From: Noviherbaspirillum sp.
GTDB lineage: Bacteria; Pseudomonadota; Gammaproteobacteria; Burkholderiales; Burkholderiaceae_D
Assembly: GCF_035254685.1 (NCBI RefSeq)
Contig: NZ_DATFAI010000043.1
Span: forward strand, 17,604 to 81,603
DNA: 64,000 bases
Direction of reading: 5' to 3'
The notes under the pieces are model-generated. The model was not told the DNA's origin. It saw only the letters and a program-made list of their open reading frames with translations, and searched no databases. The translations under genes were made by a program, and so were the position numbers. Positions within the stretch are counted from its first letter, which is position 1. Every line of letters starts with the position of its first letter. Shown one piece after another: positions 76-10,069 of the stretch.

Positions 76-408
76 ATGCACGAGACGTTACTGGTCATGA
101 CCAACATTCCGGATGAAGCCGTTGCGCATGCGCTCGCGCACCGGCTCGTGGAGCGTCGGCTTGCCGCTTGCGTTAATGTGCTGCCTGCAGTGCGCTCCAT
201 CTATCAGTGGCAGGGTGCGATCGAGGAGGCCGTTGAAGTGACGATGCTGGCTAAGACGACGCCGTCGCGTTATCCAGAATTAGAGGCTGAAATCAGAGCA
301 GGGCACCCATATGAAGTGCCGGAAATCATTGCACTTCCAATCGTTGCCGGATTGCCGGCATATCTCGGGTGGATTGCATCGGAAACCAGGAAGGACACAA
401 ATGTTTAG
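76..408 (+). CDS. cutA: Divalent-cation tolerance protein CutA
   Basis: 110 aa with LAACVN and HPYEVPEIIALP motifs; sits directly upstream of dsbD, the usual arrangement. Confidence 0.95.
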   Translation: MHETLLVMTNIPDEAVAHALAHRLVERRLAACVNVLPAVRSIYQWQGAIEEAVEVTMLAKTTPSRYPELEAEIRAGHPYEVPEIIALPIVAGLPAYLGWIASETRKDTNV

Positions 409-2233
409 CTTATTAAGGCGGTGGGCGGACAGGACGGCTCATATCCGTCTTCTCACGGCAATTTTTGCCGCCATCGCCTGTTTTGTGGCGCCGCTTTCGC
501 AGGCTGGCGACAATTTTCTCGAGCCTGAGAAAGCATTCCGGTTTTCGGCACGCATGCTGGATGCAAAGACGGCGGAAGTCACCTACGACATCGCGGAAGG
601 GTACTACATGTACCACGATCGCTTTGCCTTCAAGGCCGACGGCGCGAAGCTGGGGCAGCCGTCAATCCCCAAAGGCAAGGTGAAGTTCGACGAGACTTTC
701 CAGAAGGACGTTGAGACCCATCGCAAGTCGGTCGCCATTACTATTCCAGTCGAGGCGTCCGGCAATTTCACACTCAAGTCTACGGGGCAGGGGTGCGCCG
801 ATCAGGGGTTATGCTATCCGCCGATGGAATCGGTGGCAATGCTGTCGCCTGCAGAAGCGGGAAGCGCTGCACCGACGGGGCTTGTCGGAGGGGGGGCAGC
901 TGCAGGCATCAGCAGCGTAGCAGCTTCCTCGTCTGATCCTGAAATGGGCCGTATCGAGGCCTCGCTTCGCAGCGGAAAGCTAGTTGCAATCCTGCCGCTG
1001 TTCCTACTGCTCGGCCTTGGCTTGGCGTTCACCCCATGCGTCCTACCGATGGTTCCGATCCTGTCTTCGATCATTGTCGGGGAGGGAACGCATGTCAGCC
1101 GCAGCAGGGGTTTCACCTTGTCTGCGTCGTATTCGCTGGGGATGGCGCTCGTCTACACCTTGCTTGGTGTCGCCGCTGGCCTGATCGGCGAGGGCCTCGC
1201 GGCAGCCTTGCAGAACCCTTGGGTGCTGTCGACATTTGCGCTCCTGATGGTGCTGCTGTCGCTGTCGATGTTTGGCGTATATCAGATCCAGATGCCGGCG
1301 GCGATCCAGACCAGGCTGACGATGGTTTCGGAACGCCAGGCCACCGGGAAGCTGTTTGGCGTGTTCGCGATGGGAGCGATATCTGCACTGATCGTCGGAC
1401 CGTGCGTCGCGGCCCCGCTTGCCGGCGCACTGCTCTACATCAGCCAGACGCGCGATATCGTTATTGGCGGCAGTGCACTGTTCGCAATGGCAATCGGCAT
1501 GAGCTTGCCGCTGCTGATGGTCGGCGTGTCCGCGGGCGCCTTGCTGCCGCGCGCAGGTGCATGGATGGAATCTGTCAAGTTCTTCTTCGGCGTCGTGATG
1601 CTCGGCATGGCGTTGTGGATCGTTACGCCGGTGATTCCGGGTTGGGTGCCGATGCTGGGGTGGGCCGCTCTTGGCATTGGTTATGGGATCTATCTGATGA
1701 GGGGCAAGCGCTGGGGCTGGATTTCCAAGGCAATCGGCCTCTCCGTGGTGAGCCTGGGGCTCGTGCAGCTGGTCGGCGCAGCAACCGGCGGCACGGATGC
1801 GCTGTCGCCTTTGTCGCACTTGGTTGGTGGCGTGCACAAGACGAATTTCAAGCGTGTCAAGACAACGGCTGAACTGGATGACATGCTGGCCAAGTCGAGC
1901 GGCAAAGCCGTGATGCTCGATTTTTACGCCGATTGGTGCGTGTCCTGCAAGGAAATGGAAAAACTTACCTTCAGCGATCGGCGTGTGCAGGCGCAGTTTG
2001 CCAATATGGTACTGCTGCAGGCGGACGTGACTGCCAATAACGACGATGACAAGGCATTGCTGAAGCGTTTCCAGCTTTTCGGACCGCCGGGAATTATCTT
2101 CTTCGATGCGCAGGGCCGCGAGGTGCAGGGATCGCGCGTGATCGGCTACCAGGACGCGGACAGGTTCCTGCAGTCACTGGCGCGGGCAACGGCGCAAGCA
2201 TCATCGACCATAGCCACGCTGCCGGAAAAATAA
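401..2233 (+). CDS. dsbD: Thiol:disulfide interchange protein DsbD
   Basis: N-domain CADQGLCYPP, membrane FTPCVLPM and GPCVAAP, thioredoxin WCVSC; start moved to ATG 401 after the AAGGA RBS. Confidence 0.95.
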   Translation: MFSLLRRWADRTAHIRLLTAIFAAIACFVAPLSQAGDNFLEPEKAFRFSARMLDAKTAEVTYDIAEGYYMYHDRFAFKADGAKLGQPSIPKGKVKFDETFQKDVETHRKSVAITIPVEASGNFTLKSTGQGCADQGLCYPPMESVAMLSPAEAGSAAPTGLVGGGAAAGISSVAASSSDPEMGRIEASLRSGKLVAILPLFLLLGLGLAFTPCVLPMVPILSSIIVGEGTHVSRSRGFTLSASYSLGMALVYTLLGVAAGLIGEGLAAALQNPWVLSTFALLMVLLSLSMFGVYQIQMPAAIQTRLTMVSERQATGKLFGVFAMGAISALIVGPCVAAPLAGALLYISQTRDIVIGGSALFAMAIGMSLPLLMVGVSAGALLPRAGAWMESVKFFFGVVMLGMALWIVTPVIPGWVPMLGWAALGIGYGIYLMRGKRWGWISKAIGLSVVSLGLVQLVGAATGGTDALSPLSHLVGGVHKTNFKRVKTTAELDDMLAKSSGKAVMLDFYADWCVSCKEMEKLTFSDRRVQAQFANMVLLQADVTANNDDDKALLKRFQLFGPPGIIFFDAQGREVQGSRVIGYQDADRFLQSLARATAQASSTIATLPEK

Positions 2234-4795: not shown

Positions 4796-5497
4796 TCAGT
4801 GCGGATCAATATCATCATTACCTTCCGGCGGCACCTCTGACAAGCCAAGCAAATCAAGGATTCGTTGATTTGCCTCATCAACGCCGATGCGCTTGAGCGC
4901 CGAGAATAGCTGCACCGTAAACGGAAACGGTTTTCCCTGCTCATCCACATAGCTGCCCAGTACCGTGCGCGCCAGGCGCAGCGCATTCGTGGATTCGCTT
5001 CGGTTCAGCTTGTCGGCCTTGGTCAGCAGGCAGTGCACAGGCTTGCCGGTGGGGGCGAACCATTCCAGCATCTGCACGTCGAGGTCGGTGAAAGGCCGGC
5101 GCGAATCCATGATCAGGACCAGTGCCGCGAGCTGCTTGCGATTTTGGATGTAGGTGCCGAGCAGTTCGTTCCAGTGCAGTTTCGCCTCACCTGGCACTTC
5201 GGCATAGCCGTAACCCGGCAGGTCGACCAGCATCGCACGGATTTCGTCGACCCTCGTCGGATCGTTCCGGTGCTGGCCGACGTGTGCGCCGCCGATGGAA
5301 AAGTAATTGATGTGCTGTGTCCGGCCGGGGATCTTCGAGGCGAAGGCCAGCTTTTTCTGGTTGCACAGGATATTGATTGCGCTCGATTTGCCGGCGTTCG
5401 ACCGGCCAGCGAAGGCGATTTCGGGGACTTGCGTTTTTGGCAAGTCGCGAAGATGGTTCACCGTGGTGAAGAAGCGGGCTTGCCAGAGTAGGGACAT
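4796..5497 (-). CDS. engB: Ribosome biogenesis GTP-binding protein YsxC/EngB
   Basis: [10 protein letters not shown]-loop, DLPGYG and TKADK; start at [10 protein letters not shown]. Confidence 0.95.
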
Positions 5498-5644
5498 AGA
5501 GAGAGAAAATGCAGCAAAAACCAGCGAAAATGCTGAAAAGCTATTGTACAATAAGAGGTTATGTATTGCTGCGCCGCAAAAGCTGCGCAGCGCAACAAGA
5601 TCGCCGCCAGGCCAGAATTTTAATATCAAGTCCAGGGTGTTTGA

Positions 5645-6283
5645 ATGAACCGTGCTTTTCTTCCGTATGTAAAGTCCTTGTTCGTCGCAATGGTGGCAGT
5701 TTCCTCGGTTGCTTATGCAGCTGAAGAGAGCAAAGCGCCAAAAGCTGATCCTGCAAAGGGTGAGGCGGTGTTCACCAGCATGGCCTGCATCGGCTGCCAT
5801 GGCCCCAATGGCAATTCCACCATCGTGCAGAATCCGAAACTCGCTGGTCAGGTCGAACAGTATATCGTCAAGCAGCTCGCCGACTTCAAGACGCCGCAGC
5901 GTACCAATCCGGTGATGAGCGCCATTGCCAAGACCGTTTCGGATGTGGATGCGAAGAACGTTGCTGCCTATTTGAGTGCCCAGAAGCCGGCCCCGGGCGC
6001 GGCGAAGAACAAGGATACCGTCGAACTGGGCAAGAAGATCTATCGTGGGGGTATTCCGGAGAAGAACGTTCCGGCCTGCGCAGGGTGCCATGGCGCTACA
6101 GGCAACGGTATTCCGGCGCAATTCCCCCGTCTCGCTGGCCAGCACCAGGAGTACACCATCGCCCAGCTGACCAATTTCCGCGCTGGCACGCGTAACAACA
6201 GCGTCCAGATGACGACGATTGCCAAGCGCATGCTGGACGATGAAATCCAGGCTGTGGCGGATTACGTTGCCGGACTGAAGTAA
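5645..6283 (+). CDS. Diheme cytochrome c4
   Basis: Sec signal peptide and two CxxCH motifs (CIGCH, CAGCH); divergent from engB, the usual arrangement. Confidence 0.93.
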
Positions 6284-6320
6284 TCGGCAGACTAGATTCC
6301 GGTAGATACCCAAACAGAAG

Positions 6321-6353
6321 AAGGGGGTGGCAGATGCCACCCCCTTTGTTTTT
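6321..6353 (+). terminator. Terminator hairpin after cytochrome c4
   Basis: AAGGGGGTGGCA-ga-TGCCACCCCCTT followed by a T-rich tail. Confidence 0.7.
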
Positions 6354-6366
6354 GTAGAACACGCTC

Positions 6367-6615
6367 ATGAGCGCTGGCGCTACCTCCTGGCGGCGATTGA
6401 ACACCGGGCGATGCCGGCTGGGAGAATTCGTTGGGCCGGTTTCATCGATGCGCTTCGCGACCAGCCTCCTGACACTGATCGGCATCGCCTCCGTGATCTG
6501 CGTGGCACCGAAGCAGAACGAGCCCATGGCGAATCAGGCGAGTGCGGTGACGATACTTGCCTTCCTCGGCGTTAATATGTTCCCTTCCGGATTGCATTCA
6601 TACGGCGCGCTTTAG
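6367..6615 (+). pseudogene. Deletion scar fusing the resB (ccs1) 5' end to the ccsA/resC 3' end
   Basis: The first ~57 aa match the ResB start (SSMRFATSLLTLIGIASVI...KQNEPM); the last ~23 aa match the CcsA/ResC end (AFLGVNMFPSGLHSYG); lies at the usual resB-resC position after cytochrome c4. Confidence 0.85.
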
Positions 6616-6642
6616 AAAAATCAAGAAATTGCACCGGCGGAG

Positions 6643-6669
6643 GGAATAAAAGATCCGTCGCGGCTGTTT
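6643..6669 (+). promoter_or_regulatory. Putative ECF sigma promoter GGAAT-N18-GTT
   Basis: GGAATAAA at 6643-6650 and GTTT at 6666-6669, about 55 bp upstream of the first gene of an ECF operon. Confidence 0.6.
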
Positions 6670-6722
6670 ACCTCATGTGCGCACCACGGGCACGCCTGAT
6701 TAACCAGCTTAGCGAGGACATT

Positions 6723-7100
6723 ATGCAAATCCGTATCCCTTTGACATCGTCGTTGCTCGCCGTCCTTCTGGCCGGCAGCGCTTCCCTGGCCTTCGCAGAG
6801 GCACCGGTCAAGACCAGCGATGGTGTCCTGACCGATTCGGCCGGCATGACTCTGTACACGTTTGACAAGGATTCGGGTGGCAAGAGCGCCTGCACCGGAC
6901 AGTGCGCTGCAAACTGGCCGCCGCTGATGGCCAAGGCCGACGACAAGGCCAGCGGCGACTACAGCATCATTTCCCGCGATGACGGCAGCAAGCAGTGGGC
7001 CTACAAGGGCAAGCCGCTCTATACTTGGAAGAAAGACCAGAAAGCGGGCGACAAGACCGGCGACGGTTTCAATAACGTCTGGCACGCTGCCAAGCCCTGA
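6723..7100 (+). CDS. Secreted COG4315 / Lipoprotein_15-type repeat protein
   Basis: Signal peptide ending AFA; two repeats GMTLYTFDKD and GKPLYTWKKD; C..QC...WPP and QWAYKG motifs. Confidence 0.85.
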   Translation: MQIRIPLTSSLLAVLLAGSASLAFAEAPVKTSDGVLTDSAGMTLYTFDKDSGGKSACTGQCAANWPPLMAKADDKASGDYSIISRDDGSKQWAYKGKPLYTWKKDQKAGDKTGDGFNNVWHAAKP

Positions 7101-7115
7101 CCTGCCGATCTGTCC

Positions 7116-7619
7116 ATGGCCGATTTCGCCGACGAGCTCGCATCGCAGATCCCGCGCCTGCGGCGCTATGCGCGCGCGTTGACGCATGATGCGTCATGGG
7201 CAGATGACCTGGTGCAGGATACGCTGGAGCGCGCCTTGCAGCGACGCTGGCTGTTCCGGATCAACAGCAACCTCACCGCATGGTTGTTGACGATGTTGCA
7301 CCGCCTGTATTTGAACGAGGCGCCGCGCCGTCAACTTGTCGCCGTGCCGATCGAGGAATTGCCCGAGGCGGTTGCGCCAGGCGAACCCGGCCAGCAGCTC
7401 GACGTGCGGCGCGCGCTGGCCAGCCTGAGTCCGGAGCATCGCGCCGTCATCGTGCTGGTCGGCCTCGAGCAACTGCGATACCAGGAGGTGGCTGAAGTGC
7501 TGAACGTCCCGCTGGGCACCGTCATGTCCCGGCTTGCGCGTGCGCGAGCTCACCTGCGCGAACTGCTTTCCGGCCAGCCCGCGTCCGGCTCGTCGACGCA
7601 TTTAACACGGGTCAAGTGA
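7116..7619 (+). CDS. ECF RNA polymerase sigma factor (PrtI/ECF26-like)
   Basis: LRRYARALT, ADDLVQDTL, AWLLTML and GTVMSRLARAR (sigma regions 2 and 4). Confidence 0.92.
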   Translation: MADFADELASQIPRLRRYARALTHDASWADDLVQDTLERALQRRWLFRINSNLTAWLLTMLHRLYLNEAPRRQLVAVPIEELPEAVAPGEPGQQLDVRRALASLSPEHRAVIVLVGLEQLRYQEVAEVLNVPLGTVMSRLARARAHLRELLSGQPASGSSTHLTRVK

Positions 7620-7620
7620 T

Positions 7621-8379
7621 ATGTCCGCCTCACCGATCACTGAAATCGATTTGCATGCCTATGTCGATGGTCAGCTCGATGCGGCGCGTCGCGCCGAGGT
7701 CGAGGCTTACCTGGCAGCGCACCCGGAGGCGGTCGCCGAAGTCCATGCCTGGCGGACGCAGAATCAGTTGTTGCACGACGTGTTCGATCCCGTACTCAAC
7801 GAGCCGGTGCCGCTGCGCTTCTCCGCCGCCTTGCAGCGGAAGCGGTGGCCGCAAGGCCTGGTCGCGGGATTCGCGTGGCTGAGTTGCGGACTCGTCGCCG
7901 GCTGGCTGGCGCATGGCATGATGCAGCCAATCGAACAGCCGCGTGCCTTTGCTCGAGAGGCGCTGGCCGCGCATGTACTGTACTCGGCCGAGCAGCGCCA
8001 TCCGGTCGAGGTTCCGGCGCAGCAGGAAGCGCACCTGGTGGCATGGCTGTCCAAACGCTTGAGCGCGCCGATCCACGCGCCCAACCTGCGGGAGCAGGGC
8101 TTCTCCCTGCTAGGTGGCCGTCTGTTGCCCGGAAAAGACGGCCCGCTGGCACAGTTGATGTATGAATCGGATACGGGCGAGCGCCTGACATTGACCGTGC
8201 GCCACGCTGTGCAACCGCAGCCCGAGACCGGTTTCAAAGTAATGGAGCAGGGCGGCACCAGGGCGTTCTACTGGATCGACAGCGACTATGGTTACGCCTT
8301 GTCCGGCGGCATCGACAAGCGCAGGTTGCTGGATATCGCCCGTGTGGTCTACCTCCAGCTTCATCCGGTTCAAAATTGA
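7621..8379 (+). CDS. Transmembrane anti-sigma factor (PrtR-like)
   Basis: N-terminal DLHAYVDGQL anti-sigma domain, one TM helix, periplasmic GFSLLGGRLLP and AQLMYE motifs. Confidence 0.9.
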   Translation: MSASPITEIDLHAYVDGQLDAARRAEVEAYLAAHPEAVAEVHAWRTQNQLLHDVFDPVLNEPVPLRFSAALQRKRWPQGLVAGFAWLSCGLVAGWLAHGMMQPIEQPRAFAREALAAHVLYSAEQRHPVEVPAQQEAHLVAWLSKRLSAPIHAPNLREQGFSLLGGRLLPGKDGPLAQLMYESDTGERLTLTVRHAVQPQPETGFKVMEQGGTRAFYWIDSDYGYALSGGIDKRRLLDIARVVYLQLHPVQN

Positions 8380-8441
8380 TGTAAGGTTGGCAGGTGCTGC
8401 AAAGACCAAGTCCCAGTCCTCGACGAAATCATGGAGCAGCC

Positions 8442-9422
8442 ATGTTGTTCAAGCGCAATCCCAACGGAATCGACATTCCATTCAGTTCTGAAATTACTCC
8501 ACGCCACATTTTTGAATCTCGCCGCAGCTTCATCCGGCAGCTTGCGGTCGGCTCGATTGCCGGCGGCGCGCTCATGGACATGCTTACCCGCGAGGCCTTC
8601 GCACAGTCAGAAGGTGCGCAGAAACTCGCGGCGAAGAGGGACACTGCGTTTGTCGTGATGGACAAACCGACCTCGTACAAGGACGCCACCACCTACAACA
8701 ACTTCTATGAATTCGGCACCGACAAGACCGATCCTTCGCGCTACGCCGGCGCCATGAAAACGCGGCCGTGGACGGTTGCGATCGAAGGCGAGGTCAAGAA
8801 GCCGATGACGATTGACATCGACAGCCTGATGAAGCTGGCGCCGCTGGAAGAACGTGTATATCGCCTGCGCTGCGTGGAAGGCTGGTCGATGGTGATTCCA
8901 TGGACGGGCTACTCGTTCTCCGAACTGATCAGAAAAGTTGAGCCGACCGGCAATGCGAAGTTTGTCGAATTCATTTCGCTCGCCGACAAGAAGCAGATGC
9001 CGGGCGTGCGCAGCCCGGTGCTGGAATGGCCGTATGTTGAAGGCTTGCGGCTGGATGAGGCGAAGCATCCGCTGGCGCTGCTGACGTTCGGCATGTATGG
9101 CGAAGTGCTGCCAAACCAGAACGGCGCGCCGCTGCGCATGGTCGTGCCATGGAAGTACGGGTTCAAGTCGGTGAAGTCGATCGTCAAGATCCGCTTTGTC
9201 AAGGACCAGCCGCGGACCGCGTGGAACATTGCGGCGCCGCAGGAATACGGGTTCTATTCGAACGTTAATCCCGAGGTCGATCATCCACGCTGGTCGCAGG
9301 CGACCGAGCGACGCATCGGGGAAGACGGATTCTTCGCTCGCAAGCGCAAGACGCTGATGTTCAACGGCTACAGCGACGTGGCATCGCTGTATTCCGGCAT
9401 GGACCTGAAGAAGTTTTTCTGA
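8442..9422 (+). CDS. msrP: Methionine sulfoxide reductase catalytic subunit MsrP (YedY)
   Basis: Tat motif [21 protein letters not shown] Mo-ligand Cys and PWKYGFKS. Confidence 0.96.
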
Positions 9423-9439
9423 GGACGCAGGGGAATTCC

Positions 9440-10069
9440 GTGTTCAATCCGACTCCACGCCAGATCGCGTCGATCAAGACCGTAATCTTCGTTGCTGCGC
9501 TGCTGCCGTTCACGCGCCTCGTGCTGTTCGCATTCACCGATCGTCTCGGCGCCAATCCGATCGAATTCATCACGCGCAATACCGGTGACTGGACGTTGTA
9601 CTTTCTGTGTTTTACGCTCGCGGTCACGCCCTTGCGACGCCTGAGCAAATGGCACTGGCTGATCAAGCTGCGGCGCATGCTGGGCCTGTTTGCATTCTTT
9701 TACGCGACGCTGCACTTCACCACTTTTTTCTGGTTCGACCACTTCTTCGATGTCGACGAAATGCTGCGCGACGTGGCGAAGCGGCCCTTCATCACGGTAG
9801 GCTTCACGGCGTTCCTGCTGCTGCTTCCGCTCGCCATTACCAGCACGAACGGCATGATTCGCCGTCTTGGCGGCAAGCGCTGGCAGTCGTTGCATCGCCT
9901 CGTGTATCTGATCGCCAGCCTTGGCATCCTGCACTTCTGGTGGATGAAGGCGGGTAAGCATGATTTCGCGCAGCCCATCCTGTATGGCAGCATCGTCGGC
10001 CTGCTGCTTCTGACGCGCGGAATCAATTCCAGAATGCAAAAGCGCCGGACGGAGCCGGCGCCTGGTTGA
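9440..10069 (+). CDS. msrQ: Heme-binding membrane subunit MsrQ (YedZ)
   Basis: LRRMLGLFAFFYATLH, KRPFITVG and WQSLHRLVY; follows msrP; GTG start. Confidence 0.95.
   Translation: MFNPTPRQIASIKTVIFVAALLPFTRLVLFAFTDRLGANPIEFITRNTGDWTLYFLCFTLAVTPLRRLSKWHWLIKLRRMLGLFAFFYATLHFTTFFWFDHFFDVDEMLRDVAKRPFITVGFTAFLLLLPLAITSTNGMIRRLGGKRWQSLHRLVYLIASLGILHFWWMKAGKHDFAQPILYGSIVGLLLLTRGINSRMQKRRTEPAPG

Follow-up and report, generated by a model that had tools for sequence, protein, structure and literature searches.

The 82-codon open reading frame (ORF) that lies between cytochrome c4 and a Lipoprotein_15-family gene in this Noviherbaspirillum genome is, taken as an explanation of the evidence as a whole, very probably the dead stump of the operon for the System II cytochrome c synthase. 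Positions given without a contig name refer to the window, i.e., the whole 64,000-nt stretch of DNA that was analyzed; the genome from which it comes (G000) is 96.5% complete and comprises 57 contigs. It was compared with its nearest sister species (G001) and with two further Noviherbaspirillum genomes (G024 and G012). The features of the locus are as follows.

311-2233, plus strand: dsbD (protein-disulfide reductase), intact (NCBIfam NF001419, 600.6 bits against a cut-off of 330)
5645-6283, plus strand: dihaem cytochrome c4, intact, with CIGCH and CAGCH; left flank (Pfam Cytochrom_C, 7e-21, two stretches)
6320-6357, plus strand: intrinsic-terminator-like hairpin (12 pairs, 8 of them G-C; 6320-6347) and T-run, between c4 and the old resB start (terminator scan)
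6367-6615, plus strand: resB'::'resC fused open frame, 82 codons (ORF list)
6367-6534, plus strand: resB 5' remnant, codons 1-56 of about 715, N-terminal tail and first transmembrane helix (tblastn, alignment)
6448-6615, plus strand: internal 55-codon ORF from Met28 (another gene caller's product on three Logan contigs, P0121)
6535-6546, plus strand: junction of 12 nt, CAGGCGAGTGCG, assignable to neither gene (pairwise and four-way alignments)
6547-6615, plus strand: resC/ccsA 3' remnant, last 22 codons and stop, encoding the final part of the last helix plus the GLHSYG tail (tblastn, TIGR03144)
6675-7100, plus strand: Lipoprotein_15-family secreted protein; right flank (Pfam PF03640, 4.6e-37)

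The fused reading frame and its counterparts in sister species

To characterize the two ends of the ORF, the ResB and ResC proteins of G001 were used as tblastn queries against the whole of G000. ResB residues 9 to 55 matched window positions 6394-6534 (68% identity, E value of 1e-9) and ResC residues 366 to 387 matched positions 6547-6612 (86% identity, E value of 2e-4). The 82-codon ORF was the sole match in the genome for the two queries, a divergent paralogue at C57:132042-133103 aligning to ResC separately. The last 27 residues of the ORF also align to profile positions 226 to 252 of the 252 in TIGR03144, the NCBIfam model for CcsA/ResC (E value of 1.9e-4), while the ORF as such has no Pfam match. 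The original prediction that the frame starts as ResB and ends as CcsA/ResC is thus borne out by both methods, the two halves aligning to the ResB N terminus and the ResC C terminus. What a working System II would need is absent: of ResB (PF05140), residues 9 to 55 are found in place of a full-length protein, and just the last 22 codons of resC remain at the locus, in place of a CcsA whose WWD domain and the histidines flanking it are intact. The 82-residue product is nevertheless listed as a protein in the public record of the genome (cluster member P0122, on the 89,644-nt contig).

In the alignments to the sister genomes, homology stops on the left at 6534 and begins on the right at 6547, in keeping with the predicted break near 6535-6545. 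Mapping of the junction therefore succeeded as far as its position is concerned, but pairwise and four-way alignments turned up no recognizable microhomology: neither side resembles the 12 junction nt (6535-6546) above chance. As far as the sequence tells, these 12 nt could be either filler or drifted sequence; a 9-nt slippage at the junction (AAC TAC GTG AAC CAG to AAT CAG) is conceivable as speculation. A search of metagenome contigs for exact copies of a 25-nt sequence across the junction found none.

When window positions 5400-7200 were searched against the DNA of 43 genomes of the same genus, the query split into two blocks (1-1134/1135 and 1147/1148-1801), for which 29 further Noviherbaspirillum species show a separation of 3.0 to 3.4 kb within a single contig, with intact resB-resC in between. 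In G001, positions 5400-6534 and 6546-7200 are collinear at 87% and 90 to 92% identity, respectively, with 3,089 nt between them; the flanks are likewise collinear in G024 and G012, with about 3,116 nt between. The interval in the sister genomes holds exactly two genes, resB (715 residues, Pfam ResB at 497 bits) and resC/ccsA (387 residues, Cytochrom_C_asm at 170 bits), so that the stump occupies the same position as intact operons do elsewhere. ResB is present in 23 of the 24 genus genomes sampled, the single absence being a genome that is 71% complete. These alignments show that resB from about codon 57 onward, the 10-nt spacer, and resC up to about codon 364 were taken out by a single deletion of about 3.08 kb, which joined the resB start to the resC stop. 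The loss of roughly 3 kb that had been proposed agrees with the approximately 3.09 kb absent relative to G001.

Gene order in the genus is c4, resB, resC, Lipoprotein_15, ECF sigma factor, anti-sigma factor, msrP, and msrQ. The assumption that resB-resC normally lie between c4 and msrPQ consequently stands in a broad sense but not in a strict one, as the Lipoprotein_15, sigma, and anti-sigma genes intervene. In the flanks, c4 is 88.6% identical in nucleotide sequence to its G001 counterpart, with three amino acid changes on the G000 branch, and the Lipoprotein_15 gene is 91.3% identical, followed by the ECF sigma, anti-sigma, msrP, and msrQ genes. Directly upstream of msrP-msrQ (window 7116-10069), the ECF sigma gene is accompanied by a gene for a zf-HC2 anti-sigma factor, an arrangement presumably akin to the one in Azospira, where SigF/NrsF control a methionine-sulfoxide-reductase response to reactive chlorine species. 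As had also been predicted, c4 and dsbD are both intact. A 514-codon open frame running antisense through c4 (window 4796-6340, minus strand), in frame with an engB/yihA-like gene, displaced c4 in a crude gene call and is almost certainly spurious, a long ORF of the kind that G+C-rich genomes produce.

The strong terminator-like hairpin lies 10 to 20 nt before the resB start and is retained in the alignment with G001, where resB-resC are intact. This conservation implies that transcription from the c4 promoter normally reads through the hairpin into resBC.

Decay of the stump and the frame that remains

The original prediction held that the remnant is drifting. Differences between G000 and G001 were polarized with G024 and G012, which gave the following numbers of branch-specific changes.

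c4 coding sequence: 26 on the G000 branch, 26 on the G001 branch
Lipoprotein_15 coding sequence: 13 on the G000 branch, 13 on the G001 branch
Stump, resB part: 31 on the G000 branch, 9 on the G001 branch
Stump, resC part: 5 on the G000 branch, 2 on the G001 branch

The ratio of G000 to G001 changes is hence 36:11 in the stump versus 39:39 in the flanking coding sequences, a difference that is significant although the counts are small (Fisher P = 0.0045). Nonsynonymous and synonymous changes number 23:13 on the G000 branch versus 2:9 in the functional G001 gene, again with small counts (P = 0.014). In absolute terms, the stump has changed at 0.15 per site on the G000 branch (0.19 in the resB part), compared to 0.09 to 0.16 for the four-fold sites of four flanking genes on the same branch. 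Nucleotide identity to G001 is accordingly 74.5% in the resB remnant against 86 to 91% in the flanks, and the block SSMRFAISLLTLIAIASVIGTVLKQNEPMPNY, which is nearly invariant in 25 loci of the genus, carries at least seven replacements in the stump, with three more in the resC tail. Relative to both its orthologue and its flanks, the stump thus displays an accelerated rate and a loss of purifying selection, which confirms the drift and makes the 82-codon frame, on sequence grounds, best read as a pseudogene remnant. Because its rate is close to that of four-fold sites, the stump has evolved without constraint for about as long as the G000 and G001 lineages have been separate, which makes the loss an old one.

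Contigs of the locus from three public runs, assembled by Logan, provided a second view of the frame. They span c4, the scar, Lipoprotein_15, and the sigma gene; the SRR5133179 and SRR5177928 contigs match the window without a difference over 1.6 kb (100% identity), and that from SRR5133178 is 99.5% identical. The three contigs are independent of the assembler used for the genome, while their biological source is perhaps shared with the assembly. Compared to the window over 1.17 kb, the SRR5133178 contig (L117) differs by four substitutions and two single-base indels, and three of the four substitutions and both indels fall within a 175-nt stretch (about 6286-6459) that covers the c4-resB spacer and the 5' stump. 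This cluster may reflect either a local hotspot of mutation or relaxed constraint, or errors in a low-coverage contig. One of the changes, a 1-nt deletion near 6387 that could itself be a low-coverage error, breaks the 82-codon frame and leaves the 55-codon ORF from Met28.

It had also been suggested that the remnant is translated into a small membrane peptide. A functional two-helix membrane protein born from the scar, of 82 residues or of 55 from Met28, would fit a frame that runs uninterrupted between the former resB start and the former resC stop and keeps two hydrophobic segments, as well as the presence of the 82-residue product in the public record. The protein sequence of the 55-codon part is also identical across the three Logan contigs, but these contigs are little diverged. 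The substitution rate, by contrast, is about neutral, with the 23:13 excess of nonsynonymous changes given above, and the longer frame is broken in a contig that is otherwise 99.5% identical. No Shine-Dalgarno-like sequence is legible before either ATG, the strong hairpin lies 10 to 20 nt upstream, and among 5.8 billion sequences no homologous small protein was found except the ORF itself. By chance, one deletion in three is expected to be in frame, and the probability of remaining free of stops after 36 substitutions is about 0.2 (an estimate rather than a computed value). A functional small ORF is accordingly improbable, and the suggestion finds no support in the rate, the broken frame, the translation signals, or the search for homologues. 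If there were a peptide, the 55-codon version would be the most plausible one, joining helix 1 of ResB to the last helix of ResC with a use of its own; such a gene birth from a deletion scar seems to us a long shot, and we retain the reading of the frame as a pseudogene remnant.

System I and the remaining cytochrome genes

If resB-resC are gone, c-type cytochromes would have to be matured in another way, for which the original prediction named an acquired System I or a relocated System II. The search for ccm genes returned one complete set.

G000:C57:96566-104084, on a separate contig from the scar: ccmABCDEFGHI, nine genes in canonical order (Pfam/NCBIfam)

CcmA, CcmB, CcmC, CcmD, CcmG, CcmH, and CcmI all score above their Pfam cut-offs, and CcmE matches NF009729 at 223 bits; with the Cytochrom_C_asm domain (PF01578), CcmC scores 125 bits and CcmF 186 bits. 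The translations are uninterrupted and contain the expected motifs, i.e., the WWD of CcmC and CcmF, HDENY in CcmE, WCVSC (WCxxC) in CcmG, and LRCLVC (LRCxxC) in CcmH. A complete System I, CcmA through CcmI, is thus present in a single cluster. DsbD supplies reductant to CcmG as well as to the thioredoxins of System II; retention of dsbD is therefore expected, because CcmG also depends on it. There are many potential clients, as the crude ORF set contains, in addition to c4, 14 ORFs with at least two CxxCH motifs and 55 ORFs with one.

Downstream of ccmA-I, two divergently oriented pairs of an MtrA-like decahaem cytochrome (TIGR03508, 285 bits) and an MtrB/PioB porin (433 bits) were observed (G000:C57:108581-118612). 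The first 60 N-terminal residues of the two MtrA copies are almost identical, which suggests a recent duplication or gene conversion. Next to the pairs are a 681-residue protein in which eight CxxCH motifs are fused to a formate-dehydrogenase-gamma-like cytochrome b domain and a 117-residue monohaem cytochrome. Together, these genes likely form an extracellular-electron-transfer island.

The alternative of a System II placed elsewhere was not substantiated. No match to the ResB family (PF05140) was detected in the genome (96.5% complete in 57 contigs, with room for a divergent copy in the unassembled part). Four genes carry the Cytochrom_C_asm domain, two of which are ccmC and ccmF; a third, on contig C45 (a 272-codon frame), may be a YpjD-like paralogue, judging by its size. 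The fourth (G000:C57:132042-133103) could in principle perform the work of System II with an unrecognized partner, as it encodes a 353-residue Cytochrom_C_asm protein that is 34% identical to ResC (E value of 1.4e-36) and adjoins a monohaem cytochrome c gene. Its score of 106 bits nonetheless falls short of the TIGR03144 cut-off of 187.6, its WWD block is degenerate (RGGHWMWEPMVTW versus WGGYWSWDPKETW), it lacks both of the histidines that follow the WWD domain in ResC (in WLH and GLHSYG), and no ResB-like partner appears anywhere in the genome even at E values up to 10. A relocated or alternative System II was rejected on these grounds as very unlikely. The orphan gene (L004:1063-2124) lies beside a 102-residue cytochrome c gene and a histidine kinase gene, and its product may be a haem-sensing or regulatory paralogue. 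Complete System I thus remains the maturation system that was found.

The original prediction further portrayed System I as newly acquired and the replacement as caught part-way. Entry of System I into this species by horizontal transfer shortly before the deletion would be compatible with the location of ccmA-I next to Mtr-type porin-cytochrome clusters, which are reported to be mobile in Betaproteobacteria (PMC8805035). A pattern scan in which the best CcmF among the matches listed was 72% identical had at one point made ccm appear foreign to the genus, but that notion was overturned by a protein search, which returned CcmF matches at 95%, 91%, and 78 to 88% identity (78 to 95% in Noviherbaspirillum), many of them from N. 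denitrificans, N. agri, N. autotrophicum, N. aridicola, and sp. ST9; against the named species, CcmF is 78 to 91% identical. The 91% match belongs, on CP176528.1, to a ccmA-I set that comes after ack, pta, and crp and ahead of MtrA/MtrB-type genes. The ccm genes with their ack-pta-crp flank (G000:C57:92355-104091) are collinear with this G012 chromosome at 81 to 87% nucleotide identity, and a nearer metagenome contig (L114, 88% nucleotide identity) has the identical arrangement from ccmF-I to Mtr. The G+C content of the ccm region (0.59 to 0.64) shows no anomaly against the genome value of 0.605, and the age of the scar is close to that of the branch itself. We therefore consider such a recent transfer scarcely probable.

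The G012 chromosome also has intact resB-resC at the c4 locus. Since ccm is syntenic there alongside intact resBC, the common ancestor of G000 and G012 had both systems, a claim that draws on one syntenic complete genome (G012), contig L114, and the CcmF matches in named species. With ccm syntenic in a dual-system relative and a scar that has evolved neutrally over about the whole branch, the picture of a recent acquisition caught part-way does not hold. The loss of System II is old and complete, and the part-way, dual state is that of the sister species.

That the assembler collapsed or skipped about 3 kb and the organism really has resB-resC is a reading to which a 57-contig draft might invite but which hardly deserves credence, given that the junction lies 24 kb inside an 89.6-kb contig, resB or resC sequence is on no other contig, the breakpoints have no repeat able to cause a collapse, the excess of lineage-specific and nonsynonymous changes in the stump goes beyond what a collapse can produce, and another assembler's contigs from three public runs span an identical junction.

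Proposed history and relation to known maturation systems

The organism comes from a Noviherbaspirillum lineage in which, as the comparisons above show, two systems for haem attachment coexisted: native resBC beside c4 and ccmABCDEFGHI beside the MtrA/MtrB-type modules. System I may first have entered the lineage as a passenger of an Mtr island, a step suggested by the pattern in the literature. System I can mature any CxxCH protein, which would have made System II dispensable. System II would then have been lost on the branch of this species, early after its split from the nearest sequenced sister. With DsbD and CcmG for thiol reduction, System I would now mature all c-type cytochromes, including c4 and the 8- to 10-haem proteins, as the gene content suggests. 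It is also conceivable, if improbable, that the genus keeps both systems for different client cytochromes, in which case this species would carry compensatory changes allowing System I to handle the full set.

The genus offers a favorable setting for such questions, System II being kept in most of its sequenced species and System I also being present in at least several. As a natural knockout, this species could be compared with the strain of CP176528.1 to learn whether System I alone matures c4, any c1, cbb3 subunits, and the 8- to 10-haem proteins; the same comparison with a dual-system sister might reveal what makes both systems worth their cost to most of the genus. For annotation, the 82-residue protein in the public record is to be regarded as a pseudogene fragment.

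Compared to the System II of Bordetella, Bacillus, and chloroplasts, the stump shares the N terminus and first helix of ResB and the last helix and GLHSYG tail of ResC, whose histidine we take to be the distal periplasmic haem ligand, and it occupies the locus downstream of c4 where System II is found in the sister species. It lacks about 92% of resB and 94% of resC, the WWD domain and every other haem-handling residue among them, and therefore cannot be a synthase. With the System I of E. coli, Shewanella, and Rhodobacter, the genome has in common all nine genes, their canonical order, and their motifs; the difference is that System I is here the survivor of two systems rather than a novelty.

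The closest parallel is provided by the mtr/mto islands described by Baker et al. (2022, PMC8805035), in which ccmA-I adjoins mtr clusters in Betaproteobacteria, likely as co-mobilized passengers, and some strains keep ccsAB/resBC elsewhere. Here too, ccmA-I is directly followed by pairs of MtrA (10 haems) and MtrB, and sister species hold both systems. Whereas coexistence was described there, the present genome exhibits the next step, in which System II has been physically lost with a recognizable scar. Switches of maturation system have been deduced from phylogenetic distribution, e.g., from System I to System III in the mitochondria of Archaeplastida (PMC10879542), with the same logic of two systems overlapping before one is lost. 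Those earlier cases were deduced from presence and absence, and switches are usually recognized from gene distribution alone, while in the present case the step of loss is recorded in a scar that can be dated and has been physically mapped. One of two systems that had long coexisted has been lost completely, a well-documented case of a known process rather than a new mechanism or a new kind of system.
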